Below the pieces are notes generated by a model. It saw only the letters and a program-made list of their open reading frames with translations. It was not told the origin of the DNA and made no database searches. From an uncultured virus (IMG/VR IMGVR_UViG_3300027779_000014) (taxonomy: Duplodnaviria > Heunggongvirae > Uroviricota > Caudoviricetes): DNA of 56,189 nucleotides. The stretch lies in IMG/VR virus record IMGVR_UViG_3300027779_000014; one strand, given 5' to 3'. Shown here piece after piece: positions 11,726 to 33,369 of the stretch (its first letter is position 1; every line of letters starts with the position of its first letter). The position numbers and the translations under genes were made by a program.

Positions 11726-11732
11726 GGTCAGT

Positions 11733-12830: not shown

Positions 12831-12838
12831 GGTCAGTT

Positions 12839-13432: not shown

Positions 13433-13440
13433 GGTCAGTG

Positions 13441-13868: not shown

Positions 13869-13875
13869 GGTCAGT

Positions 13876-14121: not shown

Positions 14122-14130
14122 GGTCAGTAT

Positions 14131-14565: not shown

Positions 14566-14572
14566 GGTCAGT

Positions 14573-15052: not shown

Positions 15053-15060
15053 GGTCAGTC

Positions 15061-15366: not shown

Positions 15367-15373
15367 GGTCAGT

Positions 15374-15961: not shown

Positions 15962-15967
15962 GGTCAG

Positions 15968-16150: not shown

Positions 16151-16257
16151 GGTCAGTGCGAACTATCAAATGACAGTTACGCTTCCGTGTTTCATGCCAA
16201 CCGAAAATAATTCCGGTGGTATTTTTTTCCGATTCAAACTTAGTAGCGTTAATCAGA

Positions 16258-17628: not shown

Positions 17629-17640
17629 TATGGTCAGTGC

Positions 17641-18465: not shown

Positions 18466-18474
18466 GGTCAGTAA

Positions 18475-19551
18475 TCACAAGAAGTGAAGTCTTTTCCTCC
18501 AGTTTGAATCTGTTTCGGCCATATTGAGAGCTAACTCAAGTGTCCGTATATCGAACTGGGTTCGTGTCAGGCTTTCTGTCCCTGCGATTTTGTTCAATTC
18601 TAGATCTTCCTCATGTTGCGTTTTGAGGGCGTTTAGGACTTCTTCTTTGATGAATATGTCCATGTGAGGTTTAATTTGTTCTAGAATATTTCTCATGTGC
18701 TCTATTTTCTCCGATTCTGTTAGGAAAAGTGGAACTGTTATGCTTCTGCTTAGATATGCTTCATCAAAGAAACTTTCAGGCAAGTTTGTTATTACAATTA
18801 ATCTGCCTTGAAACCCAAACATTGTTGGGATTTTATTATCCTTGCTTCCTTGCTGCTTTAGGAACTTTTCTGCTTCATCGGGGCTGCCGACTAACTTCAT
18901 GTTAGAACCTTTAGTAGTTGAGGATACAGTTCTCACCGAGTAAGTGTCGGTCATGGCTTTCACCAATTCCCACATATCCTTACCTGTAGTCCCTTTTGCG
19001 AAATTAACATCGTCTAGTATAATTATATTTCCTGGGTGTCGGTATCTTAGTGCTGTTTCGTATAAAGCGGATGGTGTACATTTGCTTGTGAGTAAAGTCC
19101 AATCTTTTCCCTCAATCAGATTGTGTTGTTTAAGGGCCGTCTTGACTGTGTGAGTTTTGCCTATTCCTGCAGTTCCATAAAGGACTACTGAGGTTAGGTT
19201 TCCCTTACACACATCTTGAACGGTTTCGTGCATGTCGTTGAAACGATCTTTTACACTTTTTTCTAGGACTTTCACAGTTCTGATTCCGAATTGTTCTTTC
19301 GGTTTCTTATGTGAGGCGAATATTTGCATCGCCGAACCCATAGCTTTTCTACGGCTTTCCGCCTTTGCGTTGAACAAAGGTGTATGTTTCGGTGTATGAG
19401 AGATTTTACTGTTAGTTCGATCCCTCGGGCCGTCGTCGTTCATTACTTCGGTTTCTTTTGACTTCGTGCCTGCCGTTTTTGTTGCAGATTCCCATAGGGC
19501 TTCTGCACCCACTTCATTTTGTTTTTTCTTTCTGAAAAATGGTATTTTCAT
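18475..19551 (-). CDS. P-loop AAA+/SF3-like ATPase
   Basis: Walker A GTAGIGKT, Walker B IIILDD, IVITN, LSRS. Confidence 0.85.
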   Translation of the reverse strand: MKIPFFRKKKQNEVGAEALWESATKTAGTKSKETEVMNDDGPRDRTNSKISHTPKHTPLFNAKAESRRKAMGSAMQIFASHKKPKEQFGIRTVKVLEKSVKDRFNDMHETVQDVCKGNLTSVVLYGTAGIGKTHTVKTALKQHNLIEGKDWTLLTSKCTPSALYETALRYRHPGNIIILDDVNFAKGTTGKDMWELVKAMTDTYSVRTVSSTTKGSNMKLVGSPDEAEKFLKQQGSKDNKIPTMFGFQGRLIVITNLPESFFDEAYLSRSITVPLFLTESEKIEHMRNILEQIKPHMDIFIKEEVLNALKTQHEEDLELNKIAGTESLTRTQFDIRTLELALNMAETDSNWRKRLHFL

Positions 19552-19562
19552 GGTCAGTGAGT

Positions 19563-20438
19563 TCAATCCATTGAATAGGATTGGCCTCTGATTTCATCAT
19601 CTGGATCATCAATTGTTGATTGATAATCTACATATTCAGTTGTTCTGAATTGCATTATTGGTGTTTTTTTGTAATCTGGATTGGGTACAAGAACATCGTC
19701 CTTCAGAATTTCTTTCTTTAGGTCCCATTCTATATATCCATCAACACTTGGAAAACCGTTAAAATCAAATTTATCATAGATACCATCTAACAATGGATTA
19801 TCTTCTTTGATATGATATTTCCGTAAGTGGATGTATTTATCTTGATTTTGCTGATTTTCAATCGAGAAGAAAGGGTCAGCCCCAGTAGGAGTTTTACCCT
19901 CTATACAATTTTTCGTATACTTTTCAATCATTGATTCTACATCGTAATGTCCCGTCTTCTGAATTGAAGTAGTCTCTGATTCATAATCAATTTCATCGAT
20001 CCCGCCAGAATCATGCCCTCCGCTAAAAGATATACGGCACCATGCCCAACCTAGTTCTTTCATAAGCAAAAATCCTTTTTCAGATTGTTTTTTGTCGCTA
20101 GTGAAAAATGTATTGTTGGGGAATGCCGTACTAAATCTTTTAATTTCTCCTTTTAGTGTCAAAAGGGCATTTTCATTAGAGTTTGAATCTTTTTCTCCCT
20201 CTAATTGTAGCCTAAGATATGACTTTGATTCCCATTCTCGGGCCTCATTGTATTCTGGATAGGTCGATTCTTTCAGTCTTTTCTCGGCTCTTTCCAATCT
20301 TAGTATTTTGTCTTTTGTCATGTATTCAAGTGAAATTCCATAACTTTTAGTTTTCATTAATTCATCATCGTTCATATTGTTCCATTCAGGGAGAGTCTTA
20401 GACTCTACGAGAACTATATTTTCTTTGTATGCTGTCAT
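19563..20438 (-). CDS. hypothetical protein with FSGGHDSG (DUF6878-like) domain
   Basis: Shares FSGGHDSG and PSVxG with 24959..25816. Confidence 0.7.
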   Translation of the reverse strand: MTAYKENIVLVESKTLPEWNNMNDDELMKTKSYGISLEYMTKDKILRLERAEKRLKESTYPEYNEAREWESKSYLRLQLEGEKDSNSNENALLTLKGEIKRFSTAFPNNTFFTSDKKQSEKGFLLMKELGWAWCRISFSGGHDSGGIDEIDYESETTSIQKTGHYDVESMIEKYTKNCIEGKTPTGADPFFSIENQQNQDKYIHLRKYHIKEDNPLLDGIYDKFDFNGFPSVDGYIEWDLKKEILKDDVLVPNPDYKKTPIMQFRTTEYVDYQSTIDDPDDEIRGQSYSMD

Positions 20439-20447
20439 GGTCAGTAA

Positions 20448-20753
20448 TTACAAATGTAAGTTGGCGTAGCCAGCCTTTACAAATTTGGTAATTATTTTGA
20501 TTGCTTCCTTATTGGGATTTGCTGCTGCAGATAATTGGTTTTTCCAATGTAACGGAAATTCTTTATCTTGTATTTCCATTCCGAATAGTTCGTATCGTGC
20601 TTTACGCTGCGCTTGCCATAGTGCAATATATGTTTCAATCGCAATATTCGCTATATTTTCGTTTGTATCGGGAAGCATCTGGAATAATGCAGAGGCCTTT
20701 CGGCGCAATACATCTAGTTCTTCTCCTTTCTTTCTAATAAGTGCTGGTCTCAT
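20448..20753 (-). CDS. hypothetical protein
   Basis: Motif start at 20753. Confidence 0.7.
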   Translation of the reverse strand: MRPALIRKKGEELDVLRRKASALFQMLPDTNENIANIAIETYIALWQAQRKARYELFGMEIQDKEFPLHWKNQLSAAANPNKEAIKIITKFVKAGYANLHL

Positions 20754-20766
20754 GGTCAGTATTAGC

Positions 20767-21027
20767 CTAAAAAGGCAAGTCAAGTGCAATCTTCATGCTG
20801 TGGTCTGGATTTGACTTTACAATTTCATCCCAAAACGGAGATTCAATTATTGCTGATTTGCCACCTGTTTTGTTATAGGTCAAGTCCGTAACTCCATCTA
20901 CGATTAGCCAAGCCTGTAGAAAAAAACCAAAGGTGGGGCTTCTTTCGCCCAATAATCCTCCAGTATCAAATCCGTAAATCACATCAAAGTAATCGTCGTT
21001 TTCAACTTGTATCGTGTATCTGCTCAT
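20767..21027 (-). CDS. hypothetical protein
   Basis: GGTGATTAAATG archaeal SD. Confidence 0.7.
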   Translation of the reverse strand: MSRYTIQVENDDYFDVIYGFDTGGLLGERSPTFGFFLQAWLIVDGVTDLTYNKTGGKSAIIESPFWDEIVKSNPDHSMKIALDLPF

Positions 21028-21037
21028 TTAATCACCC

Positions 21038-21292
21038 TTATGTTTCTATTAGTCCACAGTCATTACAAACCATACCTATCATAGTATCGCTATAATTTAA
21101 GTGTGAACATATCTCGTCTTTCAAGTAATTGTCCCTCTCCTCTTCAGTTAAGAAGTAGTATTCGTCATCTGCGAATCCTAATCCTTTGTTTATGTCGGAG
21201 ATGATTTGTTCAACGGTGATTTCAATTTTCACACCTGCTGATATTCCATACAGTTTGTGTAGGCCTTTGTGGCCGTATGTTTTTTCTGTCAT
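21038..21292 (-). CDS. hypothetical protein
   Basis: Motif start at 21292. Confidence 0.7.
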   Translation of the reverse strand: MTEKTYGHKGLHKLYGISAGVKIEITVEQIISDINKGLGFADDEYYFLTEEERDNYLKDEICSHLNYSDTMIGMVCNDCGLIET

Positions 21293-21299
21293 GGTCAGT

Positions 21300-21401
21300 T
21301 TATTCGTCATCTAAATCCCATAATTCGAAGATGTATTCATCTTTTATTATTCGGAATCTCAATACTCCGAGGTCATCGGTTGGTTCAAACATTGCTTTCA
21401 T
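21300..21401 (-). CDS. small protein (33 aa)
   Basis: Fills exactly the space between two motifs: MKAMFEPTDDLG...DLDDE. Confidence 0.6.
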   Translation of the reverse strand: MKAMFEPTDDLGVLRFRIIKDEYIFELWDLDDE

Positions 21402-21411
21402 GGTCAGTTTC

Positions 21412-22302
21412 TCAATCATCGAAGCGCGTAAGGCCTGTTTGAATGTTCTCCATATCTAGTTCGATACAGACGGCATTTCGACCCGTTTTCAAACAAGCCT
21501 CGGCTAATCCAAGGCCGCCTGCGAATGGGTCGAGGACTATGTCGCCCTCGTCTGTACTGAATTGGAGCATATCTGCCAGTATTTCTATTGGCTTCTCTGT
21601 TTGATGCTTCTTTTTACTGTGACTTGGTCTAGTTGCTACTAGAACATCGTGAACATAGTGCTGTGGATTCGGCTTTCGCTTGAATCCACCCATGTTGTAT
21701 GGTTTTCCTTTGGAGTAGAAGAAGATGAGTTCGTGCCTCGCTCTTCCATAATACCCCATACCAATTTGCACCTTATCCCAAATCCAAGTCCTATTATATC
21801 TGAATCCAGCACCCATTGTTAATTGGCGCTGTTGTTCATTATAATCTGCTGTATCTCCGTACATTGATTGTCCGGCAGCAGGCATGAACACAAACATGTG
21901 TCCACTTGGCTTTAGCACTCTGAATAATTCATTTAGCAAATCTTCGTCAAGATCTCTTGTTTGGAAATCCCAACCACCTCTTCTGTTTCGTTCTCTAGCT
22001 GTTCCTGTTTGCATTTGCTTGTCTAAAGCAGAATACGGGGGATCAGTAATTATCGCATCAAAGTGATTATCGGGGAATGTTGGTAATGTTTCCCATGCGT
22101 CTCCTTCAAGAATGAGGGCTTGATTATCACCACAATGGGCAATATATACACCTCTTTCTATTCTTTGGAAGCACTTTCCTATATTTTCATTTAACCTTCC
22201 ACGAATAGTGGTAGGTAATTCTTCTCCGAAGTTTTGGTAGATCACTTGAAGCGGTTTAGGGTGCTCCAAGAATTCCATTAATCTTTTTCGTAGGCTTATC
22301 AT
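21412..22302 (-). CDS. DNA methyltransferase (N6-A/N4-C, beta class)
   Basis: ITDPPY, HQTEKP, GDIVLDPFAG. Confidence 0.9.
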   Translation of the reverse strand: MISLRKRLMEFLEHPKPLQVIYQNFGEELPTTIRGRLNENIGKCFQRIERGVYIAHCGDNQALILEGDAWETLPTFPDNHFDAIITDPPYSALDKQMQTGTARERNRRGGWDFQTRDLDEDLLNELFRVLKPSGHMFVFMPAAGQSMYGDTADYNEQQRQLTMGAGFRYNRTWIWDKVQIGMGYYGRARHELIFFYSKGKPYNMGGFKRKPNPQHYVHDVLVATRPSHSKKKHQTEKPIEILADMLQFSTDEGDIVLDPFAGGLGLAEACLKTGRNAVCIELDMENIQTGLTRFDD

Positions 22303-22309
22303 GGTCAGT

Positions 22310-22801
22310 TTACTCGAATCCTGATGTAACGGCTACGAAAGCAGCCTTAGCATCTTTTTCATTGAGTATTTCTTTTACAAATTCATATCCCGATGGAACA
22401 CCATCCCAGGCTCCTTCTGCCCATTCTTGTGCGTCACCGTCGCTAGAAATTGTAATTTCATCTCCTAAGTGGTGTTTGGCGAGCAACAAAGTTGCTGTAA
22501 CCAATCCGTCGTATTCCTTTCTCGCAGTCTTGCAGAAATTGAATACCATATCTTCGTCTTTTCTCCAACTACTTTGAATCGGTTTCCTTTCTAAGACGAA
22601 TGTTTCGTGTCCACCGTCGAAACGGATTTCATTATCCGTAATTGTAGGGTCGTTCCAGTGTTCGTATTGATTGTTTTGTTTAGCTCTTTCAATTATTGGG
22701 CTTTCTTCAAGCAGTTGCTTGGCATCCCTTGTCATATTATTCCATTTTTTATCGGACACTTTCTTGTCCTTTTTCATATACCAATAGTGTGTATATCCCA
22801 T
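22310..22801 (-). CDS. conserved phage hypothetical protein
   Basis: MGYTHYW...FCKTARKEYD...ISSDG. Confidence 0.8.
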   Translation of the reverse strand: MGYTHYWYMKKDKKVSDKKWNNMTRDAKQLLEESPIIERAKQNNQYEHWNDPTITDNEIRFDGGHETFVLERKPIQSSWRKDEDMVFNFCKTARKEYDGLVTATLLLAKHHLGDEITISSDGDAQEWAEGAWDGVPSGYEFVKEILNEKDAKAAFVAVTSGFE

Positions 22802-22810
22802 GGTCAGTTT

Positions 22811-23098
22811 TTATTCGTCTTCGTCCCGAGCGACTGGTTCTTTGCCGTCTGAGAACTTTGATTTGTCCCAAGACCATAATGCCTCGAATGCAAGATCGTC
22901 CTTTTGGTCGGGTTCTCCGATGTTAGGACAATACTCCAATAAAGTTTTGATTATTGTCATGGTGTAGCTTCTATCGAAAGCGATTGCTACGCCTTCGTGG
23001 TACCATTTCCCATGGTATTCTCCTAAATATGTAGCCTTATCATCATAATTTTGCCGCGCTTCGTCGATGGCGGCTTTCAACTGTTTTGTTGTTGTCAT
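22811..23098 (-). CDS. hypothetical protein
   Basis: Motif start at 23098. Confidence 0.7.
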   Translation of the reverse strand: MTTTKQLKAAIDEARQNYDDKATYLGEYHGKWYHEGVAIAFDRSYTMTIIKTLLEYCPNIGEPDQKDDLAFEALWSWDKSKFSDGKEPVARDEDE

Positions 23099-23106
23099 GG
23101 TCAGTC

Positions 23107-24162
23107 TTACATCATAAGAGCATGAAATGTTCTTTGTGTGCTTGTAGTGCTTGTCGAACCGCATTGGTTTGGACAAGGCCCACAGTCTGTTACACAACCT
23201 ATTACATGTGCATCTGCTTCTGTAAGTGCGTCTTTATCGTTAAAGTATTTTGGACCACCATAGACCCACCCTGTTTTGAGTTTTGTATTGCCATCTTCAT
23301 CTTTTAAGCCGTACTTTTTGGCTTTGTAAGATTTTGGATGTATCAATATGTCTTTGTCTATGTGTTCCATTCTAGGATCACTCCTTCTCATTTGCCAAGG
23401 GGTTTCAATTATTCTAATTCCTTCTTTTATAGTTAGATTGTAGAAAGCGTCTTGACCATGCCATAGGATATCTCCCATACCTTCTTCGATTGGTTGGTTC
23501 TTTTTCCAGGGGAATGTACATAGCCGCATGAATATCGATTCTTGCGGAGTCATTTTTTTGTATCTCCTGATAATGTCTATAATCACTGGAACTCGGGAAT
23601 TCGGATCGAATTCTCTAGTCCAGTCATACCCTGCTATGACGCTCCAATGTAGGATTGCGCCAGAAAGTGCTAACCTCCCTAGTTGTGATGGACTAGGTGT
23701 ATGCCAAAACTTGGTGATAATCACCATTCTTGAACCAGCCATGCTGACTGTTTCTGCTGCTTTGACTGTTAGATCCCAGTCATATGAGGGATCTCCCATT
23801 ACTCCGTTTCTAACCCATTCCTTCGGAATATCTGTTGTGCTTTTACTACACCTTTCTAAGTGTTTTAGCACATCAGTTTGAAGTTTTACGGGTTCGAGTA
23901 TTTGAGATTGTGGACTGTCGAACTTAATGGCCTGGAATGTGACTCCCATGGAGGATTCGGCATAACAACCGAAACATCCACCTTTGCAGCCTTTTACTGT
24001 GTCCATTATATTCTTGTCTGTTTTATTATTCTCATATAGTCTAATCACTTTGTTAGGGAAAGGCGTTAGTACCGTTCCAGAACCATTTACTTTTTGTGAT
24101 GTCTGCTTTGGTAGAACGGGTAATTCCCATTCTACTTGCAGTTTCATATTTTTTAGTATCAT
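23107..24162 (-). CDS. radical-SAM-like / gp88-like Fe-S protein
   Basis: CKGGCFGCYA (CxxxCxxC), RNGVMGDP, C-terminal CxxxCxxCxxxC. Confidence 0.6.
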   Translation of the reverse strand: MILKNMKLQVEWELPVLPKQTSQKVNGSGTVLTPFPNKVIRLYENNKTDKNIMDTVKGCKGGCFGCYAESSMGVTFQAIKFDSPQSQILEPVKLQTDVLKHLERCSKSTTDIPKEWVRNGVMGDPSYDWDLTVKAAETVSMAGSRMVIITKFWHTPSPSQLGRLALSGAILHWSVIAGYDWTREFDPNSRVPVIIDIIRRYKKMTPQESIFMRLCTFPWKKNQPIEEGMGDILWHGQDAFYNLTIKEGIRIIETPWQMRRSDPRMEHIDKDILIHPKSYKAKKYGLKDEDGNTKLKTGWVYGGPKYFNDKDALTEADAHVIGCVTDCGPCPNQCGSTSTTSTQRTFHALMM

Positions 24163-24177
24163 GGTCAGTTGGTTCAT

Positions 24178-24543
24178 TCATGTTAAGCACCTTCCTTCTC
24201 GGTGCCTATACAATACTTCATCGGATGTATCGCAATACACCCTAAGACAATGCTCGCAGTAGTCTGTCCCATTCTCCCTCAATGCTTCGCCCATTACTTC
24301 GTATGCTTTACGCAACTTCTTGTATTCTGCTAGAATAAGTGGTGCGTCTGCCATCAGGCATCCGTTTATTTGCAATTGTTCTGGTGATTGGTTGTGTTCG
24401 TGCATTTTGCATATACTCTTCCCTTCTGGTTCTGGGATCATTATTTGTGGCGCGTAAATATACGCTTCATCTCCCCAGAGTTCGAGGTCCCAAGGCCCTT
24501 TTGTGTGGCCTTCATATTTACTCAAGTTTATTCTAATTGTCAT
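24178..24543 (-). CDS. hypothetical phage protein
   Basis: HTKGPW...LMADAP; motif start at 24543. Confidence 0.75.
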   Translation of the reverse strand: MTIRINLSKYEGHTKGPWDLELWGDEAYIYAPQIMIPEPEGKSICKMHEHNQSPEQLQINGCLMADAPLILAEYKKLRKAYEVMGEALRENGTDYCEHCLRVYCDTSDEVLYRHREGRCLT

Positions 24544-24706
24544 GGTCAGTTGTGGAGTCTTCTTCAACTCCATCATGGTCTATTTCTAGTAAAGCCATGC
24601 CCATGAAAATTATATTTTCTATGAATTGCCAGTCCTCAACGCCACCGCCTAATATCTTAGCGTGGCTGATCAAGTCTTCCACTATCTCTTCTCTCGTTTT
24701 TGTCAT
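24533..24706 (-). CDS. small hypothetical protein (57 aa)
   Basis: Motif start at 24706. Confidence 0.6.
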   Translation of the reverse strand: MTKTREEIVEDLISHAKILGGGVEDWQFIENIIFMGMALLEIDHDGVEEDSTTDHDN

Positions 24707-24714
24707 GGTCAGTC

Positions 24715-24948
24715 TTATGTTCCAATTATTGCTATTTGAGAATCATCGTCGTGTAGGTATTTGTGCTGGGCCAGAAATCCTCCGCAAGCAGAGATTGTTC
24801 CTATCATGTGCCCATCGCAGTGAGAACAGTATCTTTCTGTTACTGCTTCTGTCCTTTTACCTGTTTTATCTGTTATTGTTACGAGTTTTCCAATTAGTTT
24901 ATGTGTGTATTCTTCGAATACTTCACCTGTTTCGGTAATAATCTTCAT
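24715..24948 (-). CDS. small zinc-binding protein
   Basis: Motif start; CSHC...HKYLH. Confidence 0.7.
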   Translation of the reverse strand: MKIITETGEVFEEYTHKLIGKLVTITDKTGKRTEAVTERYCSHCDGHMIGTISACGGFLAQHKYLHDDDSQIAIIGT

Positions 24949-24958
24949 GGTCAGTTAT

Positions 24959-25816
24959 TCAGTAACTTCTTCCATATACTGAATATTCTATATCATATGG
25001 TTCCCAGGGGTCATCTGGATCTTCATCTTCATCTTCCGAAGGTTCCGCATAGTAGGTCACTACCCCATTAACTGAGGGGTGATTAGCGAAACTTCCAAAG
25101 TTTTCAGTTAGAGATCTGTTCAAAGGGCTATACATACTTATGTATCTAGCATTCATTAAAGTTGCAAGATTGAGTATTTTTCCTTTGGTTTCCCAACCGG
25201 ATGGAGTTAGAGTATGGTTGTCAAATCGACAACTATAAACTTCTAATTCGTTTATATTTAATGGGTGTTTAATGCCCTCCATATCTCCTTTCTTTGTATA
25301 AGTAACTGATTCAAAATAACCTGAATCATGTCCTCCTGAAAACGCGGCTTCGATGTTTTGCCATTCGTTTCTCTTTACAAATTCTCTCATTGCTTTATGA
25401 GGTTCGTCTCCATCTTGTTTCCATAGGGCAAGAACGCTTTCTTTTGCTATTTCCCACTCTTTTTGATTTAGAAATCCTTCTCCTGGATACACTGTTTGAT
25501 TCTTAATGGTCAGAAGGGCTTCTTCTGTCCTTCTGTCATTTACTTCTGAGGTAGTCAAAGTTTCGAACTTTTCTATCTCTTTCTTGTAACCTTCTATCAA
25601 TGGCTGTTGCCACTCGGAAGGTTTTGGATTGTTTACTGCATTTCTAAGCCGTTCCATATCCCTGTTTGTTTTATCATTTAATGAAGAAATAATATCCGCG
25701 AATGATTGAGTATTTTTCAATTCTTCATCGGAAAGGGCTCTCCATTGTTTTTCAGTCATATTTTCAATAGTGAATTTTGTTAATTCAATACCGAGTATTT
25801 CACTTAATAGTGTCAT
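24959..25816 (-). CDS. hypothetical protein with FSGGHDSG (DUF6878-like) domain
   Basis: Motif start; paralogous motif. Confidence 0.7.
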   Translation of the reverse strand: MTLLSEILGIELTKFTIENMTEKQWRALSDEELKNTQSFADIISSLNDKTNRDMERLRNAVNNPKPSEWQQPLIEGYKKEIEKFETLTTSEVNDRRTEEALLTIKNQTVYPGEGFLNQKEWEIAKESVLALWKQDGDEPHKAMREFVKRNEWQNIEAAFSGGHDSGYFESVTYTKKGDMEGIKHPLNINELEVYSCRFDNHTLTPSGWETKGKILNLATLMNARYISMYSPLNRSLTENFGSFANHPSVNGVVTYYAEPSEDEDEDPDDPWEPYDIEYSVYGRSY

Positions 25817-25825
25817 GGTCAGTAG

Positions 25826-26074
25826 TCATGGTTTTTTTTTCCATGATTGTTTTATTACAACTGCTTTCATTTCGATGTAAGCGAAATATCCACATATTGA
25901 ACATAAGGCTTCATATTCACGCCCCCAGCGATCGTAATTTGTGCAATTGAATCCTTCTTCGTCTTCCGAATCTTCGAACCATGGAGCTTCACATGCTGGG
26001 CATGATGAGCCGTGTCCTACTTCGTTGAAATCATCCCCTTCTTTATACGGGAACTTCTTTACTTCTTCTGTCAT
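25826..26074 (-). CDS. zinc-ribbon protein
   Basis: CPAC...CSIC. Confidence 0.7.
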   Translation of the reverse strand: MTEEVKKFPYKEGDDFNEVGHGSSCPACEAPWFEDSEDEEGFNCTNYDRWGREYEALCSICGYFAYIEMKAVVIKQSWKKKP

Positions 26075-26083
26075 GGTCAGTAT

Positions 26084-26419
26084 TTAATCATATTTTTGAT
26101 TAGGAAATTCATCCCTATATTCCTTTATACTTACAATGAAATGTAAGTAGGGTTTCCAACTTCCGTAAGGAAAAATGATGAAATCTACATTATCACCTAT
26201 GATGGCATCTTCTAGTAGAATTGCACCCCATGATTCATCATCGTATGGTGTGTGTGGTGTGTGTAGTTCATCGATTACTCCCTCTGCTTCCTTCTGCGCT
26301 TCCTCTTGAGTGGCGTATGTGCGTAGGAGGCCGTCAATAACATCACAAGCACACCATCCAAACAATTGGTTTTCTGCTACGACCCAAACTTTTGCTGGGT
26401 CTAATTTTTTTATACTCAT
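26084..26419 (-). CDS. hypothetical protein
   Basis: Motif-started ORF. Confidence 0.75.
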   Translation of the reverse strand: MSIKKLDPAKVWVVAENQLFGWCACDVIDGLLRTYATQEEAQKEAEGVIDELHTPHTPYDDESWGAILLEDAIIGDNVDFIIFPYGSWKPYLHFIVSIKEYRDEFPNQKYD

Positions 26420-26425
26420 GGTCAG

Positions 26426-26743
26426 TTATCTGCAATGTTCGCAGTAATCTTGTTTTTGTTCGCTTTGGTAATCGCGGTCTGAGGGACTAAGCATACTAAC
26501 TTCTTCCCAACAATCTTCGCAACAAAGGAATGCTGAACCTTCACCACCCATGTAACCAACAATTGCTTTTTCACCGCAATTGTCGCACATGAAATGAATA
26601 TCGCATTCATCATTTGCACAAGTATTGTTTGCGCCGCTATTCATTGTAGCGTCGACGCATTTTTCGCATACTCCGCCGTCAGGCGTTAATCTTTCACATA
26701 CCCATACTTCGCATTGTATGGGAATCTCTGATAATTTTATCAT
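26426..26743 (-). CDS. Cys-rich protein
   Basis: Motif start; multiple CxxC. Confidence 0.7.
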   Translation of the reverse strand: MIKLSEIPIQCEVWVCERLTPDGGVCEKCVDATMNSGANNTCANDECDIHFMCDNCGEKAIVGYMGGEGSAFLCCEDCWEEVSMLSPSDRDYQSEQKQDYCEHCR

Positions 26744-26758
26744 GGTCAGTAGGTGAAA

Positions 26759-26983
26759 TCACTCTATTAAGTGTGATAACACATAATCAAGGGGCATCCA
26801 TCTGTCGCCGCATTCGTTTAGGAACATATGCTCTTCAAACGGTCCGTCTGTGAAAGTACCCACATCTCCTGCCCAAAGGATAGAATGTATAATGAATATA
26901 TCATTAGGTAGATCGTCTCCGTAGTCTACAACCCATTCTACTTTTTTTCCTAAGTGTTTTTTATATTTTTCAATATCTGTCAT
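26759..26983 (-). CDS. hypothetical protein
   Basis: Motif-started ORF. Confidence 0.7.
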   Translation of the reverse strand: MTDIEKYKKHLGKKVEWVVDYGDDLPNDIFIIHSILWAGDVGTFTDGPFEEHMFLNECGDRWMPLDYVLSHLIE

Positions 26984-26991
26984 GGTCAGTA

Positions 26992-27348
26992 TTAGGCTTC
27001 AAGGCCTAATTCTTTGGCGGTTTTACCGCCTCGTATCATCCAATCTGCTGGTTTGATAGTTTTCATCCAATCTGCTGGAGTCGGAACAAATCCGAAATCT
27101 TCCATAAGATGCTGTTCTCCTATCCATCTTGTTGGTACTTCTTTTCCTGTGCTTTTCACAGTCCACATTGAGCCAAAGACTTGTTCGCAGATTGTGATTC
27201 CTAGTGTGTGATGTAGTATCGATCTATGGGTGAAATTCCATCCATGTTCTTTTGATTGGTCGAACCATTCGTGTATGGACATATAATCTTCCGGCTTTCC
27301 GCCCCATTTCTTAACTGAACTCATCGCATGATGTATTGCTGTACTCAT
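26992..27348 (-). CDS. DUF6915-like protein
   Basis: HHAMSSVKKWGGKPEDY..IHEWFD.SK...HRSILHH...GEQH.MED; variant motif ACTTATC|ATG. Confidence 0.75.
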   Translation of the reverse strand: MSTAIHHAMSSVKKWGGKPEDYMSIHEWFDQSKEHGWNFTHRSILHHTLGITICEQVFGSMWTVKSTGKEVPTRWIGEQHLMEDFGFVPTPADWMKTIKPADWMIRGGKTAKELGLEA

Positions 27349-27366
27349 GATAAGTTCGGATTGACC

Positions 27367-27404
27367 AAAAAAAAGTGCCGAGACACCCATATTGGTGCCT
27401 CGGC
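27367..27404 (-). terminator. stem-loop plus U-tract, putative terminator
   Basis: GCCGAGGCACC-AATATG-GGTGTCTCGGC then ACTTTTTTTT on minus strand. Confidence 0.65.
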
Positions 27405-27414
27405 TTTATTTTAG

Positions 27415-27687
27415 TCATTGGCTCAATTCATCCCATAATTCGAGATTGATTGTGCCGTGGTAACTATCTGCCCAATTGGCAGAATAGTATTTTTCATCAT
27501 TTGTTATTGGATCATCATAAGGACTGCTTTGGTCTAGTTCCCATAATAGAATCTGTTCCTTTACATTCTTTGATGCCCTTTTCTTTTGGTATTCATTACC
27601 AAATTTAATGTCTTGTTCTAGTTTTTTGAAGTACCTTGACTTGGTACTTATGTCTGTTGCTGCTGTTGCTGCTTTTCGATTCGACAT
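27415..27687 (-). CDS. hypothetical protein
   Basis: Variant ACTGACCA|ATG. Confidence 0.7.
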   Translation of the reverse strand: MSNRKAATAATDISTKSRYFKKLEQDIKFGNEYQKKRASKNVKEQILLWELDQSSPYDDPITNDEKYYSANWADSYHGTINLELWDELSQ

Positions 27688-27696
27688 TGGTCAGTA

Positions 27697-28119
27697 TCAC
27701 TTGTAAATTATTTTATTAAGTGCAGAAAGCGGAACAATTTTTTCAACAAATAATTTGGAATTTTTGTGTTCCCATGGCTGAAAATTGTATTGTTCTGTTT
27801 CTCTGTCCCATATTCCTACGCTTAGATTTAGCCCTAGTTTGACACAGGCGTTTACTGTCCCGAATAGGGCAGAAGTAAGGCCTGATGCGTAAAGAGCTAC
27901 TTGTAAATCGTGAAATATGGTTGGATCTTCCTCATAAATTGATTGAATCCTTTTTGTTGCTTTAGCATAGTAAGAATCCGGATTTTTTGGATCTAACTTG
28001 TTAGGATGAACGGGGTCCTTGACCTTACTCTCGTCGAAAACGAGATAGTCAATTGGTGTTCCGTCATTCTTGTTTGGTTGATGCCCTGGTCGGGGCATTA
28101 ACAATATGTGCAATGTCAT
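27697..28119 (-). CDS. hypothetical Rossmann-like protein (possibly CARF/Csx3-like)
   Basis: ACTTACC start at 28119; LYASGLTSAL...WDRETEQY. Confidence 0.6.
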   Translation of the reverse strand: MTLHILLMPRPGHQPNKNDGTPIDYLVFDESKVKDPVHPNKLDPKNPDSYYAKATKRIQSIYEEDPTIFHDLQVALYASGLTSALFGTVNACVKLGLNLSVGIWDRETEQYNFQPWEHKNSKLFVEKIVPLSALNKIIYK

Positions 28120-28202
28120 GGTAAGTAGGCACATAGGTAGTGGTGTGCCTTCCACTGCCCCGAAGGGTCTTGCTTTTTGCCAATTAAGGCTAACGAATTT
28201 GA

Positions 28203-29249
28203 TTATTCGGCTTCCAGTACAAGGTAGTCAACATTTGACTTTTCTCTTACTTTCTGGGTCATATTCTTGGAGATTATCTCAGAAAGGTGTTGTTCCCCTT
28301 TCTTGAGCAATTCTGCTGCGGCTTCTTGATTTATTTTTATGTTGTTTGAGAGCCATTGCTTCTCCGATTTGTCCCAGTCACCTGGATTGCTTGATAAATC
28401 GTTTTTGCAAACATCTGATTCGATGCGTGGTTGCTGTTTTTTCCGATAAAATCTTGTTCTTCTTTGAGGAGGGGCGTGCGAAAGTGATCTTTTAACCCTA
28501 TTAGAATGTTTAACATTTCCTTCTAGGATTGATTCACAAAGTTCACACTTGCCTCTACGGGTGCCCATGATTTCAGAATTCCTTTTCCTGATGTGGCAAC
28601 CTTTCTCTTTAGTAACTTTTTTCAAATGCAGTTTTTCGTCATTCAAACGAGCCTTTGCTCTGCGTGTACGAGAAGATTCTAATTTCTTGGACCTTCTCTG
28701 CATAGCATCTACCCAATTATAGGGTACTTGCGGCGTTCTCGTAGAAGTAGCCATGGCTTCCGCTTTGGGCGGGGCTTCGGATTTGACAACCATCGTGGTT
28801 GCTGTGAATCGTACTGGCTTGAATCTTCCATCGAGTTTCCCTTGTTTATTTGTAGGGATCTCTTCGTTCCATTCTACTTTGCATTTTGCCAATTGTATAA
28901 CTTTTTCAGTCACATGACCGTCATTAGATGCGTCATAAAACAAATTCAATGCATAGTTAATTTTTTGTACTAACACATTCGGTGTCAGCATCTTAGCATT
29001 TTTATTCAGTATTACTACATCTTCTTCTTCGGTAGTGAGGTTATCCAAGTATGGCTTTATTATCGAAATCAATATTTTTAGGTAAGATGCTCTTCTTAGA
29101 GCACTTTTGCCTGCACCGGAATTACGCTTACTTATTTTCATAGCGCGTTTCCTTATGGCGGCTTCTCTTTCAGTTAGAGAAGAGATGCGGCCATTTTGGC
29201 TTGCAATTTCGTTCATTATTGGTTCATTATTCGTGCATTTATCTTGCAT
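28203..29249 (-). CDS. basic hypothetical protein (348 aa)
   Basis: Motif start; K/R-rich. Confidence 0.75.
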   Translation of the reverse strand: MQDKCTNNEPIMNEIASQNGRISSLTEREAAIRKRAMKISKRNSGAGKSALRRASYLKILISIIKPYLDNLTTEEEDVVILNKNAKMLTPNVLVQKINYALNLFYDASNDGHVTEKVIQLAKCKVEWNEEIPTNKQGKLDGRFKPVRFTATTMVVKSEAPPKAEAMATSTRTPQVPYNWVDAMQRRSKKLESSRTRRAKARLNDEKLHLKKVTKEKGCHIRKRNSEIMGTRRGKCELCESILEGNVKHSNRVKRSLSHAPPQRRTRFYRKKQQPRIESDVCKNDLSSNPGDWDKSEKQWLSNNIKINQEAAAELLKKGEQHLSEIISKNMTQKVREKSNVDYLVLEAE

Positions 29250-29684
29250 GGTCAGTTACGGGATTTGTTCACTCGCCACCTATCCCGTATCGGTGGGTCA
29301 TTGTGTCTAGTTGCCCCGAAGGGGCGTAAACCTCGTTCATTATTCACTTGGCCATTCTTTTTTCTAAAAACATTTTAAGTTCATTAGATGGTCCCCAACT
29401 TCCTAACACTTGACGAATAGTCAAGGGAAAGTTGTAACCTATGGCGGCTGATAAATCTAGATCCGTAATATTGTAGACTGTTGGTATTCCGGACATGGAA
29501 GCGAACTTGACTTTTATTTCGTCATTTTCCTTCCATGCAGTTCCGTAACCGGTCTTTATTATTAGTTTTCTTTCGTTCATTGGTTCATTATTCGTGCGTT
29601 TATCTTGCATGGTCAGTTACGGGATTTGTTCACTCGCCACCTATCCCGTATCGGTGGGTCATTGTGTCTAGTTGCCCCGAAGGG
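29207..29684. repeat. ~115-bp direct repeat (29207-29323 and 29571-29684) covering leader structure, motif and first codons
   Basis: Near-identical sequence; both genes begin MQDK.TNNEP. Confidence 0.95.
29344..29610 (-). CDS. hypothetical protein
   Basis: Motif-started ORF. Confidence 0.7.
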   Translation of the reverse strand: MQDKRTNNEPMNERKLIIKTGYGTAWKENDEIKVKFASMSGIPTVYNITDLDLSAAIGYNFPLTIRQVLGSWGPSNELKMFLEKRMAK

Positions 29685-29685
29685 C

Positions 29686-31419
29686 TCAACGCTGCTGTTT
29701 TCGAGCAGGCTTGCGTGTTGGTTTTTTGCTTTGCTTGGCTCGGTGATCGTAAGCATCCTTGGTTAGAGGCACTGCTTTTACTCCGATGACTGTTCTGCCA
29801 CCGATTGTCACCATTGCCGGAGTCAATTGAGACCTATTTCTCCCAATTTTTCCGTTTAAGCCGACTTTTTGCTCTCCTTTAGAACCATTGCTCTTTCCAG
29901 ATAGTTGGGCGTTCTCAAAGCCGAAAGGCCAGAATACGCTATTATCCTTTAATTGTTGCAATGCTTTTACAGTGGACTTATCCTTTTTATTTGCTTTATC
30001 GCCTATTTTTAGTAGGTAAGCGATGTTGGATAATACCCCAGTTGGCTCATAGCCGTGTTGGGCTGTCCTAGACTCAGAAGCTAAGATATTCATAATCGAA
30101 GCTGCTTTGCCTTGTCCTAAAACTTGTTGAAAGTAAAGTTCTGCCAACTTGGCTCCCTTCTTAATATCAGATACATCCCGTGGTTCAAGAGTTTTTCGTC
30201 CTCTCTTATCACAAGACTTTTCTGCTTTCGAACCTCTCATGAAGATTGAACTGTGAACTTCTATGCTATAACCTAGTTTTTGTAGAACTTTGGTTTTCAT
30301 TTCTAGCAGTTGAGACACAATTTCCCAATCAAGGAAGCGAGCGTTCTTGCTCGGATTTCGAGCGAGTTTCAGTGTACCCAAGTTCGGGTCATCTCGATCT
30401 ATTCCGTGATTGATTTGTAAATCTTTAAGGTTTCCAGTCTTAGGTAGTATGGTTTGTCCATACGGAGTTGCAAGTCTGATTAGGTTAAACCTACTCAGTG
30501 CGTTGACGCGATATACCAATATGTCTGCGTACTTTTGATTCTCTTGGCTCAGGTATTGATCCAAGTTAATGCCAAGTAATTCTTGTGCAGTTGGGTTTCT
30601 CTCAGTTATACGAGGTACGCCTTTGCCGACTTTGAACATACCAGGGGTATATTGTGGCGTTACATCATAAATAATCATAGACGCGAATTCTTTGTCGTCT
30701 GTTTCTGCGATGTAGCGCACACTTGTGCCCGCTGGTGCTAGTAACTGGAGGTCTTTTACTAATGAATCAGCATCATCTCGGCTGATTAATCCTGATGTTT
30801 TGGCTGTCTTGCCGTCATCAGATAGTAAATTGGACATCAAGGCATGAACGCTAGGATCTATTCCTATATTACCGAATGACATGGAACCTGACAATAAATT
30901 GCCAGCCACCATATTTCGGCCTTCTTGCGTTGTAGCTCCTTGTGTATCTGCTGCCTCTATAAGAGCGTGGGAAACCCACACTTCTTTATTAGGGACATTA
31001 AATGTTCCATTAGGACCTGTTTTCTCAGTTCTTTCATTTTCTTCTAGGTCTGCAAAGACTTGTTTCTTTGATTGTGCGTGCTCTTTCCCATACAATAAAA
31101 TCTCAACTTTAGAATCTCCTATAAAGAAAGTTCCGTCATTTTCTGATTTTGCATGTTCAAAAGATCTTACACACTCGATAAACTGGTCTGTTGCGTCGTT
31201 TTGCTTTGCGTTGTTTTTTATTTCTTGTGAAATAATTTTTAATGTATCTACGATAGGGCTTTTAGCATTCTTTGGCGTTGCATTTGCAATTTGCTCAAAT
31301 TGAGGCAATTTGCTAATAGCAGCCAAATCTGCTTTTAGACCCTTTAGGGTAAATTCAGTCATTATTTCATCTTTTGTCATATCAGCGTAGATTTCTACGC
31401 TTGCATTTTTCATGTGCAT
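29686..31419 (-). CDS. large hypothetical protein (577 aa)
   Basis: ACTTACC start; long ORF with no family I recognise. Confidence 0.85.
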   Translation of the reverse strand: MHMKNASVEIYADMTKDEIMTEFTLKGLKADLAAISKLPQFEQIANATPKNAKSPIVDTLKIISQEIKNNAKQNDATDQFIECVRSFEHAKSENDGTFFIGDSKVEILLYGKEHAQSKKQVFADLEENERTEKTGPNGTFNVPNKEVWVSHALIEAADTQGATTQEGRNMVAGNLLSGSMSFGNIGIDPSVHALMSNLLSDDGKTAKTSGLISRDDADSLVKDLQLLAPAGTSVRYIAETDDKEFASMIIYDVTPQYTPGMFKVGKGVPRITERNPTAQELLGINLDQYLSQENQKYADILVYRVNALSRFNLIRLATPYGQTILPKTGNLKDLQINHGIDRDDPNLGTLKLARNPSKNARFLDWEIVSQLLEMKTKVLQKLGYSIEVHSSIFMRGSKAEKSCDKRGRKTLEPRDVSDIKKGAKLAELYFQQVLGQGKAASIMNILASESRTAQHGYEPTGVLSNIAYLLKIGDKANKKDKSTVKALQQLKDNSVFWPFGFENAQLSGKSNGSKGEQKVGLNGKIGRNRSQLTPAMVTIGGRTVIGVKAVPLTKDAYDHRAKQSKKPTRKPARKQQR

Positions 31420-31439
31420 GGTAAGTATTTATGATAAGT

Positions 31440-31660
31440 AAGCAAGATTGTGGCATACTTGCTCTCTGCGGTGTCATTGAGAGTCCACCATCCTTTTGTC
31501 CTAAGTCGAGGGTTAGCACGACCAGACTTGGGATCCTTTGTTCGTCAAAGTTTTTTCTCGGCATGTTCGCTGAACCGCAGTAAAAATTGCTGCTTAGATG
31601 CTTCACCAAACCAATTATAGGTTCACCCTTTAATGGTCTGACTTATTCCACACAATATTT
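31440..31660 (-). ncRNA. putative structured ncRNA (~220 nt)
   Basis: Bounded by motif variants; stems agcaag/cttgct, tcctaagtc/gacttggga, ctgcgg/ccgcag. Confidence 0.45.
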
Positions 31661-31683
31661 TATGATAAGTATTTATGGTCAGT

Positions 31684-32100
31684 AGTTCCGTTGAGTAGTG
31701 GAAATTGAGCTTATCATTGACGCCGACCTTTTACAGTCGTCACTCAGTCATTTTCAATCTGCAGATTGTCCATGACTTGCCTTTGAATTTTTACGGCTCA
31801 TAGGTAGTAACCGGATTGATGATTTTTAGTCATCTATCCATTTCTACCCCTGTTGCTCTTTCGAGCATTTTGTGGCCTTTCGGCCTAATGGCATCATTTT
31901 ATCCTCTGGTAGAGGACTGGACTCAATTATCGGATTTCCATTCATCCGACCATTATTTATTGTTGTTGCTCTTTCGAGCGTTGCAAGGTTTCGCTTGCTC
32001 CGAACACCTCTGCAGGGTCGGTGTAGTTATGCTGTATCAACACTCCTCGAACTCTGATCGAGGACTTGTCACACACTCTTGGCTGTGTGAGCGTTTTTTA
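31684..32100 (-). ncRNA. putative structured ncRNA (~415 nt)
   Basis: Bounded by motifs; minus-strand GAAA tetraloop hairpins GCTC-GAAA-GAGC (x2) and GGCC-GAAA-GGCC; further stems. Confidence 0.6.
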
Positions 32101-32375
32101 CATGGTAAGTGCAGTTTGCGCGTACTGCTAGACGCATTATTTTTGGTGTTTGGCAATCTAAGTGTTGCCCATACTGTATATTTGCGTTTTAGTCCATATT
32201 ATCGCGGCCTAAATATACCGACCAAATAATAGTCTGCATATTGATGAATCCCTTTTTCTTTTCTTCTGGGTATTCAACCTCAATCATCTGCCTAATTTGC
32301 TTTCTGGAAAAATTTCGCATGGTAAGTGCAGTTTTGCGCGTACTGCTAGACGCATTATTTTTGGTGTTTGGCAAT
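32101..32375. repeat. ~57-bp direct repeat (32101-32157, 32318-32375) with pseudoknot and ACTTACC motif
   Basis: catggtaagtgcagttt(t)gcgcgtactgctagacgcattatttttggtgtttggcaat. Confidence 0.95.
32189..32320 (-). CDS. small hypothetical protein
   Basis: ACTTACC start at 32320. Confidence 0.55.
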   Translation of the reverse strand: MRNFSRKQIRQMIEVEYPEEKKKGFINMQTIIWSVYLGRDNMD

Positions 32376-32405
32376 TAGGGTTTGCCCAACCCATAAGATG
32401 CGGAT

Positions 32406-32510
32406 TTAGATTCTGCAATTCATTGTGCCGCACTCGCAGATTTTCCATTCTGGGTGCATTGGCAAATCATCATCGTATTCTATTCCGCATGAACATGTAT
32501 GTGTGTACAT
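32406..32510 (-). CDS. small zinc-ribbon protein (34 aa)
   Basis: ACTTACC start; CSCG...CECG. Confidence 0.6.
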   Translation of the reverse strand: MYTHTCSCGIEYDDDLPMHPEWKICECGTMNCRI

Positions 32511-32521
32511 GGTAAGTAAGT

Positions 32522-32848
32522 GTTCCAGGGCAAATTCTTTGGTCTGAAATGAGTGGGGGTCAGCACACTCATTCTCGTTGCCGATCATTACATCTCTGGA
32601 ACGGTAAGTGCCGCCACCTCCAATTAAGGAGGGCGTTAAGCCCGCATTCTCATCTGTCTGGTATAAGAGAGGAGTCCTAGGCGGATTCTGGCGACGGTAA
32701 GTGAGCCTTTTATAGATAATTACCGCGTTCTTGCTCAGGATTCCGCTTGGTAATCATAGACCTCTCATTTGACCGTAGAGAGGCTGGTGAAGGATCCACA
32801 CCCAATTCCCTCTTGCGTTATTAGGAGGGAGGTTTGGTAGATATGGAT
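32522..32848 (-). ncRNA. three motif-delimited small structured RNAs (32522-32602, 32610-32695, 32703-32848)
   Basis: Each begins right after ACTTACC with a paired 5' end (GTTCCAG/CTGGAAC; GTCGCCA/TGGCGGC; ATCCATATC/GGTGTGGAT). Confidence 0.55.
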
Positions 32849-33033
32849 GGTAAGTGCAGTTTGTGGTCATTTTCACTGCGAGACCAGGGTCAACACTGCT
32901 CTTAACTACCGAATTCATCGAGACGGCGCGTGTGCTTGTGTTGAAAATGGGATTTGGTCACTCGCCACCTTATCCCATATCAGGTGGGTCATAGTTCGTA
33001 ATTCAAGAATAAAGAGCTTGTATTTACTGCGGA

Positions 33034-33282
33034 TTAAGAAAACCTTCGATTCATTATTGCTTCTTGAATCAAATATTCTACATCTTTTTCGGCAGTCTTT
33101 AGTGCTTCGCGAGTATCTTTCAATTGTCTCAAGGCATTCCGAAATTTATTTTCGGAAATTTGGCCATTCATAAACAATCGCATTAACTGTTGCTCTAACT
33201 GCGGTTTATTCTTGTTGTTGGTCCTAACTTTACGGTGAGGTACAACCGACCCATCTCTGGGATTTGCCTGCTTATTTTGCAT
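33034..33282 (-). CDS. hypothetical coiled-coil protein
   Basis: ACTTACC motif 3 nt after tRNA CCA; start at 33282. Confidence 0.7.
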   Translation of the reverse strand: MQNKQANPRDGSVVPHRKVRTNNKNKPQLEQQLMRLFMNGQISENKFRNALRQLKDTREALKTAEKDVEYLIQEAIMNRRFS

Positions 33283-33292
33283 GGTAAGTATT

Positions 33293-33369
33293 TGGCGGGT
33301 CATACAGGGTTCGAACCTGTGGCCTTCCGGTTAAGAGCCGGACGCTCTACCTGACTAAGCTAATGACCC
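33293..33369 (-). tRNA. tRNA-Lys(CTT), CCA encoded
   Basis: GGGTCAT/ATGACCC acceptor stem, TCCGG-CTCTTAA-CCGGA anticodon arm, GGTTCGAACCC T arm, GCCA end. Confidence 0.95.

Follow-up and report, generated by a model that had tools for sequence, protein, structure and literature searches.

Pseudoknots and hairpins abut the gene-start heptamer of a viral gene array and may form 3'-terminal modules of the RNA units upstream

A heptamer-punctuated gene array and the structures in its head

The DNA stretch analyzed here, 56,189 nucleotides (nt) of the uncultured virus IMGVR_UViG_3300027779_000014 (in the following, the window), carries on its minus strand, from 338 to 33289, an array in which nearly every gene opens with the heptamer ACTGACC or ACTTACC fused to ATG. 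Allowing up to one mismatch, ACTKACCATG occurs 67 times in the window, 65 times on the minus strand, with 6.9 occurrences expected, and an ATG directly follows the heptamer at 58 of the 65 exact array sites. We define the head as the first ~6 kb of the array (28-34 kb, 13 heptamer sites) and the body by its 52 sites. ACTTACC is found at 10 of the 13 head sites and at none of the 52 in the body, which has ACTGACC. From -60 to -1, no position 5' of the heptamer exceeds 0.13 bits of conservation; therefore, no TATA-like or Shine-Dalgarno-like signal precedes it. Array products include ArdA, at least two DNA methyltransferases, a PAPS-reductase-like protein, and a sliding clamp, while most of the others match no known family.

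An original prediction, made from the letters of the sequence, had placed pseudoknots (PK) immediately 5' of the heptamer in the head, three of the motifs being preceded in addition by a C(UUCG)G hairpin. The coordinates and pairings of all these pseudoknots were verified on the minus strand, and the three hairpins are present. The features are given below in the direction of the array, with genes named by their length in amino acids (aa), UTR standing for untranslated region and ORF for open reading frame.

338..33289, minus strand: heptamer-punctuated gene array, ~65 genes
33293..33369, minus strand: tRNA-Lys(CTT), CCA end 3 nt before the first heptamer-ATG (33283-33289)
32947..32987, minus strand: PK-A copy 3, diverged (ATGGGAT/ATCCCAT), in the 3' UTR of ORF1, no heptamer behind it
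32856..32886, minus strand: PK-C (TGGTC/GACCA; GCAGT/ACTGC), before heptamer 32849-32855, which lacks an ATG
32328..32353, minus strand: PK-B copy 2, with an extra A in loop 3, before heptamer 32321-32327
32111..32135, minus strand: PK-B copy 1 (GCGT/ACGC; GCAG(T)/(A)CTGC), before heptamer 32104-32110
29674..29685, minus strand: C(UUCG)G hairpin directly after the stop codon (29686-8) of the 577-aa gene
29619..29657, minus strand: PK-A copy 2, pseudoknot sequence identical to copy 1, before heptamer 29611-29617
29313..29325, minus strand: GCCCC(UUCG)GGGGC hairpin, upstream of PK-A copy 1
29258..29296, minus strand: PK-A copy 1 (CCACC/GGTGG; ACGGGAT/ATCCCGT), before heptamer 29250-29256
28158..28170, minus strand: CCC(UUCG)GGG hairpin in the 3' UTR of the 348-aa gene
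28127..28156, minus strand: PK-D (AGTGG-A-AGGCAC-A-CCACT-ACCTAT-GTGCCT), stem 2 ending at heptamer ACTTACC (28120-28126)
26991..27010, minus strand: body-junction hairpin ATTAGGC-cttgaa-GCCTAAT, ending exactly at heptamer 26984-26990

All four elements are H-type pseudoknots, with two crossing stems and loops long enough to span the grooves: PK-A has 5+7 bp and loops of 3/1/11, PK-B 4+4-5 bp and 3/0-1/4-5, PK-C 5+5 bp and 2/6/3, and PK-D 5+6 bp and 1/1/6. In PK-D the stem 1 strands are AGTGG/CCACT and those of stem 2 AGGCAC(A)/(T)GTGCCT. Copies 1 and 2 of PK-A read CCACC-GAT-ACGGGAT-A-GGTGG-CGAGTGAACAA-ATCCCGT-A, followed by ACTGACC; taken as 8 bp (TACGGGAT/ATCCCGTA), stem 2 is flush with the heptamer. 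Behind PK-B copy 1, the heptamer leads into ATG TAA and then into a non-coding RNA (ncRNA) that is abundant.

Six head sites were confirmed as having stem 2 end at the heptamer, as originally counted, yet they represent only four separate elements and not six placements, PK-A and PK-B each being duplicated along with their junction. Copies 1 and 2 of PK-A lie within a 118-nt junction duplication of 96.6% identity and the PK-B copies within one of 72 nt and 93%. Hairpin, pseudoknot, heptamer, and the initial 14 codons are all part of the copied segments (29207-29323 and 29567-29684; 32101-32171 and 32318-32388). Duplication of the junction seems to have inserted the 88-aa gene as a cassette; the related contig L125, introduced below, lacks this gene and has a different extra one elsewhere. 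The description of the pseudoknots as largely unrelated in sequence proved overstated for PK-B and PK-C, because they have the 3' 17 nt CAAACTGCACTTACCAT and the GCAGT strand in common; their stem 1 differs completely. The third copy of PK-A was absent from the earlier list.

Pseudoknots are enriched at the heptamer

Applying a strict enumerator (perfect Watson-Crick stems of at least 4+4 bp, 3' strand of stem 2 touching the motif, at least 9 bp in total), we found pseudoknots at 8 of 65 heptamer sites, comprising 6 of 13 in the head and 2 of 52 in the body, the latter two being A/T-rich. In 300 dinucleotide shuffles the mean was 0.50 for all sites (maximum 3) and 0.05 for the head (maximum 1). 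The original prediction had named equal frequency in shuffled sequence as the outcome that would speak against it; the pseudoknots are far rarer there. In an every-position control, 1.2% of the head-region positions qualify. A relaxed enumerator returned 7 of 77 sites in the window (1.0 expected) and 2 of 9 in L125. The structures exist and are placed non-randomly.

Chance combined with duplication, i.e., a few fortuitous stems copied along with their junctions, would draw on the fact that two of the four elements are duplicated, on PK-B stems of only 4-5 bp, and on the lack of comparative support for PK-B, PK-C, and PK-D, for which support is statistical only. Both the shuffles and the every-position control contradict it, as do the covariation of PK-A in three elements and the same abutment in an independent genome (see below), and we regard it as extremely improbable.

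PK-A covaries among related elements

One near-identical record and two diverged relatives of the window, L125 and G002, were compared. G001, an IMG/VR record of 36.7 kb, is 99.87% identical to the window across the compared head region. L125, a metagenome contig of 4.7 kb, encodes proteins 54% and 49% identical to the 577-aa and 348-aa proteins of the window, respectively. G002 is a complete IMG/VR genome of 128,784 bp with terminal repeats, whose array holds 63 ACTKACC sites on one strand, from 113876 down to 73406 (62 ACTGACC, 1 ACTTACC). Its head is ordered as in the window: TATA-like repeats, ncRNA, tRNA-Lys (arranged like that of the window), ORF1, PK-A, a second ncRNA, and a homolog of the 577-aa gene (22% identity, E 4e-16). 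The heptamers of the G002 head read ACTAACC, ACTAATC, or ACTCACC.

PK-A is found in these elements as follows.

Window, 29256/29617: stem 1 CCACC/GGTGG, stem 2 ACGGGAT/ATCCCGT
Window, 32987: stem 1 CCACC/GGTGG, stem 2 ATGGGAT/ATCCCAT
L125: stem 1 CTCCC/GGGGG, stem 2 AGGGAT/ATCCCT
G002: stem 1 CCACC/GGTGG, stem 2 TCGAGAT/ATCTCGG

In total, five copies with four distinct sequences occur in three elements (window, L125, and G002). All of their 5 + 6-7 pairs are Watson-Crick or G·U and none is broken. The differences comprise four two-sided changes (stem 1 pair 3, from A-U to C-G, and stem 2 pairs 1, 2, and 4), a deletion that removes both partners of one pair, and two G·U pairs. The loops, GAT and a CGAGTGAACAA-like sequence, are conserved as well. 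In three of four contexts stem 2 stops 0-1 nt before the heptamer, although the latter varies between ACTGACC, ACTTACC, and ACTAATC. By comparison of these sequences, PK-A is a genuine RNA kept with covariation.

Loops of the C(UUCG)G and GNRA types are RNA stability motifs, and the hairpins that accompany PK-A have loops of one or the other kind. Given these loops and G·U pairs that would be A·C on the other strand, the structure is selected in the sense-strand RNA, the strand on which it is the better one. No Rfam 15 family except tRNA was matched, either by the whole window at the gathering threshold or by 27900-34400 at E<=5.

The 3' strand of stem 1 and loop 3 of PK-A (window 29265-29280; G002 L144 ~8462-8472) contain GGTGAGT in G002 and GGCGAGT in the window and L125. 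The former is the exact complement of the heptamer variant ACTCACC and the latter a near-complement of the heptamer. PK-A may pair alternatively with the heptamer, or this may be chance.

Plain helices end at the heptamer as well

We counted maximal perfect helices by the offset of their 3' strand to the heptamer, from -6 to +13, at 65 sites of the window and 63 of G002. Helices of at least 7 bp occur at offset 0 at five window sites (0.22 expected); in G002, two were found at offset 0 and three at offset 1 (0.18 expected each). Elsewhere such helices are near background, with single ones at -1, +2, and +9 in the window and at +6 and +7 in G002. With a threshold of 6 bp, offsets 0-2 hold 8 helices in the window and 12 in G002, with about 2-2.5 expected. 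Many of the abutting hairpins are formed by the very end of the upstream gene, its final codons together with the stop, and several of those in G002 are perfect palindromes with 3-nt loops. The abutment rule is therefore wider than the pseudoknots.

An offset peak as sharp as 0-1 nt is what coaxial stacking or a helix-end ruler requires. This would suit an aid to recognition of the heptamer, the abutting helix keeping it single-stranded or stacking on the helix it forms with a trans-acting RNA or an enzyme-bound guide, and thereby sharpening cleavage or initiation at weakly coupled junctions. The concentration of structures at spacers with a stop codon 68-87 nt away, compared with the 28 of 60 window junctions where it lies 0-3 nt from the heptamer, and the near-complementarity of PK-A to the heptamer agree with such a role. 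Anti-heptamers in the abundant head RNAs are near chance, however (2 vs 0.9 and 2 vs 0.8 expected), no partner molecule was identified, and PK-A copy 3 has no heptamer at all, so that we consider this role distinctly unlikely.

The palindromes of G002, the duplicated junctions, and the shuffling of cassettes between lineages could also be read as a signal at the DNA level, with inverted repeats acting as single-stranded DNA hairpins in a promoter, as in phage N4, or in cassette recombination, as in integron attC sites. The covarying pseudoknot topology, the sense-strand G·U pairs, and the UUCG/GNRA loops point to RNA instead, and no polymerase was found. An attC-type hairpin was rejected since the heptamer lies outside every helix, unlike the attC core; helices of at least 7 bp end 0-1 nt before its 5' edge, at five sites per genome. 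A DNA-level signal is thus highly improbable.

Structured spacers stay with the upstream gene

Comparison of the lineages shows which neighbor the structures accompany. In three of three lineages the spacer behind the 577-aa gene is structured and closes with a helix that abuts the heptamer: a UUCG hairpin and PK-A in the window, an 8-bp stem ATCCTAGG/CCTAGGGT flush with ACTTACC in L125, and TGCCTA/TAGGCA flush with ACTGACC in G002. Hairpin and pseudoknot follow the 348-aa gene in two of two lineages (PK-D in the window, PK-A in L125). ORF1 is likewise followed by PK-A in two of two lineages, once without a heptamer (window) and once before ACTAATC ATG (G002). No such conservation is seen among the downstream genes. 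In front of the 140-aa gene, which lies behind PK-D, a pseudoknot is present in the window only, the homolog of this gene in L125 following a plain coupled ACTGACC junction. The evidence points to structured spacers as belonging, in terms of sequence neighborhood, to the upstream gene.

This bears on the possibility that the pseudoknots regulate the downstream gene in cis from its 5' side, as translational operators or initiation tuners to which a protein or the ribosome binds. A stem at a fixed zero distance from the heptamer-ATG would be expected of such elements, the conserved loops of PK-A would suit a binding site, one RNA contig carries PK-B, heptamer, and downstream RNA together, and regulatory pseudoknots upstream of phage and bacterial start codons are familiar from T4 gene 32 and rpsO. 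The partner of PK-A, however, varies between the 348-aa gene, the 88-aa gene, an unrelated 86-aa gene, a 15-codon ORF, and nothing. PK-B precedes ATG-TAA and PK-C a heptamer without ATG, and the RNA contig of the gene behind PK-D begins within the ORF rather than 5' of the knot. Tuning of processing or initiation at the first genes of the array, one of two functions originally proposed, fits less well with a downstream gene that varies across lineages, and cis-regulation as a whole seems unlikely to us, albeit credible.

The knots are confined to long spacers, with stop-to-pseudoknot distances of 29-61 nt for the three PK-A copies and 46 nt for PK-D. A frameshift or read-through pseudoknot was rejected on account of these distances past the stop codon and of the lack of an overlapping extended frame. 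Another conceivable role is ribosome hand-over, in which the folded spacer would compact the 70-90 nt between stop codon and heptamer-ATG in a shunting-like re-initiation. Stop codons lie 0-10 nt from the heptamer at 40 of 60 junctions in the window and 36 of 65 in G002, and most body stops are this close, suggesting coupling; only long spacers bear knots, and in one case nothing separates the stop codon (29686-8) from a UUCG hairpin. Yet the spacers hold two or three separate structures instead of one stop-to-restart helix, and the distance from stop to first helix varies from 0 to 41 nt. Moreover, heptamers also head non-coding RNAs, and differing unit depths suggest separate RNAs. We rate hand-over as very unlikely.

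RNA contigs are discontinuous at heptamers

Weak evidence on transcripts comes from RNA contigs assembled from four seawater metatranscriptomes, in which stretches without cover (e.g., 32182-32462) are uninformative. Contig ends flank ATG-bearing heptamers on both sides: those of 5' pieces are at 31405/31404/31399, 32087/32089/32085, and 28102, and those of upstream pieces at 28151 and 31450/31454. This leaves uncovered gaps centered on the heptamer 5' edge, at 28103-28150 (edge 28126/7) and 31405-31449 (edge 31426/7). The contig of the 348-aa gene (X7, 28151-29233) passes through the UUCG hairpin into PK-D. For the gene behind PK-D, contig cover begins at 28102, within the ORF. Adjacent units differ in contig depth (179, 46, 33, and 8.7).

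Two very abundant non-coding RNAs are located in the array head, both on the minus strand: 33485-34127, with contig depths of 38-229, and 31685-32100, with depths of 43-179. The former has adapter-marked ends at 33485/33505 and 34051 and sits behind two TATA-like boxes within CTAGAGRGCCGGTGGCCTAT repeats. Both have sequence homologs in the head of G002 and no match in Rfam. A conserved small RNA unit of ~85 nt between two heptamers (32518-32602, minus strand; L125 298-375) has a closing stem GTTCCAG/CTGGAAC that begins right after one heptamer and stops 2-4 nt short of the next; the DNA of this unit is better conserved than the adjacent proteins.

Within the array, a strong hairpin of 11 bp (8 G-C) with T8 (27404-27377; minus strand, 27367-27404) is positioned 20 nt before the variant heptamer ACTTATC-ATG of the DUF6915 gene, and a homologous arrangement with ACTCACC-ATG exists in G002 (L144 ~4640-4700, minus strand). 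Downstream of the hairpin in the window, RNA depth returns to the upstream level. A hairpin and T8 with RNA continuing behind them would fit re-initiation at heptamers.

A possible 3'-terminal role of the structures

In our preferred reading, to which we assign a probability of roughly 45%, the pseudoknots, tetraloop hairpins, and plain junction hairpins are 3'-terminal modules of the upstream RNA unit. The array would be expressed as units, each beginning at a heptamer ACTNACC. The non-coding tail of a unit, or at some junctions its last codons, would fold such that the last helix is flush with the next heptamer, and the new 3' end at this boundary would thereby be base-paired. A paired 3' end would block 3'-to-5' exonucleases and may also fix where the end falls. 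The boundary itself might arise from endonucleolytic cleavage of a long precursor or from a stop and re-start of transcription. We infer that it is a real RNA end that the structures stabilize.

Protection of the 3' end of the upstream fragment had been proposed originally alongside initiation tuning. It is partly supported and, judged from gene order, structure placement, and RNA contigs, fits better than tuning, because the spacers stay with the upstream genes while the downstream gene changes, because one PK-A copy sits in a 3' UTR without a heptamer, and because RNA contigs stop on either side of the heptamer 5' edge.

Several observations weigh against this role. No helix is present at about 80% of the junctions; therefore, structure is not required for a boundary. 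Among the element proteins searched, no nuclease or RNA polymerase able to make the boundary was found. PK-B, PK-C, and PK-D lack diverged homologs, their other copy, in G001, being 99.87% identical, and with the relaxed enumerator G002 shows no pseudoknot excess beyond PK-A (2 of 75 sites vs 1.0 expected). Folding of the 50 nt before heptamers, as suggested originally, gave mean z-scores below those of random positions (-1.13 and -1.26 vs -0.58 and -0.52), but these minimum free energy z-scores of nested folds failed to flag the pseudoknot sites and are consequently a poor test for pseudoknots. On the RNA level, assembled contigs reveal neither the true ends or tails of RNAs nor their strand or local depth, and the gaps may reflect low cover, one of them adjoining a repeat. 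Furthermore, one X7 contig (31698-32144) bridges PK-B copy 1, its heptamer, and the abundant downstream RNA, and another (32559-33180) bridges three ATG-less heptamers including that of PK-C. Read-through RNA therefore exists; such bridging contigs would fit precursor processing.

A more far-reaching version of the 3'-terminal role, speculative and on balance rather improbable, is a private RNA punctuation system of a marine archaeal virus-like lineage. A precursor promoted in the head and comprising ncRNA, tRNA-Lys, and ~65 genes would be cut at every ACTNACC by some factor, yielding messages that have either a constant leader of 7 nt or no leader. The flush knots and hairpins would serve as 3' caps setting message lifetime, and the near-complement in PK-A may toggle access to the cut site.

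Host, distribution, and neighboring genes

The element is marine and virus-like, and its host is probably archaeal. G002 encodes a thermosome of the archaeal type (L148 8245-9627; TIGR02339 1.7e-86, best GroEL model 2.8e-11), the sliding clamp of the window matches archaeal PCNA models (5e-17), and, according to passages of the magrovirus paper, viruses infecting marine group II archaea have thermosome genes (PMC5434244); the host is taken as archaeal because of these three points together. In G002, no Pfam match to Rpb1, Rpb2, or DNA polymerase B was obtained. Its giant proteins of 2947 aa (L147 10018-18858) and 2086 aa (L148 9899-16156), the latter with a guanylate-kinase domain and otherwise without recognizable function, gave no informative PDB sequence match.

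Searches for further relatives returned little. Exact and degenerate PK-A patterns and the conserved ncRNA pattern retrieved only G001 from the viral_contigs collection, as did single-protein scans. A 14-mer scan returned at least 119 stretches, and among the loci examined only those of G001 had heptamer-ATG twice or more. No relative was found in the genome_contigs collection, and the GenBank phage collection gave no DNA match, a weak clamp match only, and no thermosome match. Of six other contigs retrieved by a two-heptamer pattern, four (L130-L133) were dropped, having 0-2 heptamer-ATG sites per strand. L141/G003 was rejected as a relative, as its only three heptamer-ATG sites are no excess over a reversed-pattern control. 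The PK-A pattern is absent from G003-G006, although the same pattern also missed the G002 copy TGAGTAACA, which was found by reading.

The 577-aa protein belongs to a family of 10 representatives and has no match in Pfam or PHROG; its AlphaFold model (predicted local distance difference test score 72.7) gave no Foldseek match at E<=0.001, the best VIA Z being 5.4 over 47 residues. From 34600 to 56189 the genes of the window start without the heptamer; among their products are glycosyltransferases, a serine recombinase, and a glycine-rich tail-fibre-like protein. The array of G002 likewise covers only about 40 of its 129 kb.

Relation to known systems and significance

The structures were compared with known classes of RNA elements. 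Intrinsic terminators were rejected, no T-run following the pseudoknots or UUCG hairpins; T-runs on the array strand are weakly depleted (20 vs 25±4.7, and 19 vs 32±4.9). Regarding tRNA-like structures, ARAGORN and the Rfam tRNA model find only the tRNA-Lys; ACC does occur at the end of the heptamer, 7 nt past the stem.

Four known systems share individual traits with the array, the nearest in its logic being that of the Mimiviridae. These viruses have a conserved AAAATTGA gene-start motif. A 'hairpin rule' in this family describes intergenic hairpins that form transcript 3' ends (PMC4402537). Hairpins at the 3' ends of a large DNA virus and a short conserved word starting the next gene thus resemble the arrangement seen here. 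The Mimiviridae, however, are eukaryotic giant viruses whose hairpins are palindromes cleaved by a viral RNase III with subsequent polyadenylation; these do not abut the start motif and none is a pseudoknot.

In MALAT1 and MEN-beta, a 3' triple helix lies beside the RNase P site of a tRNA-like structure. As may hold for the window, where cleavage is putative, the 3' end generated by an endonucleolytic cut is protected by a compact tertiary RNA directly 5' of the cut. There the cut is set by the downstream tRNA-like fold and not by a heptamer, in a eukaryotic, nuclear context. The tRNA punctuation of mitochondrial polycistronic transcripts likewise parts packed genes by a recurring element, and the tRNA-Lys of the window ends 3 nt before the first heptamer. 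The window mark is, in contrast, a 7-nt word instead of a folded tRNA, with optional structures upstream of it. Finally, regulatory pseudoknots lie 5' of start codons in the T4 gene 32 operator and E. coli rpsO, at a short distance and of the H-type as in the window. Those are tied to one gene and its autoregulator; the window knots are not fixed to one junction and accompany the upstream gene.

A full-text literature search for ACTGACCATG returned, among the matches listed, only unrelated primer or sequence mentions, and one on archaeal virus start-codon motifs or leaderless arrays returned nothing on such arrays. In the text of the magrovirus paper, the words 'promoter' and 'motif' never occur (PMC5434244). 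No description of a 3'-cap array mechanism was found for archaeal viruses.

PK-A is a small, covarying, and easily testable RNA uncatalogued in Rfam. The abutment rule results in a precise prediction, namely RNA 3' ends at the heptamer 5' edge. For annotation, gene callers expecting ribosome-binding sites will mis-start genes in such arrays. If the structures are indeed 3' caps at heptamer boundaries, they would provide the virus with a compact route from a 30-40 kb anti-defence and accessory array to many separately stabilized messages.

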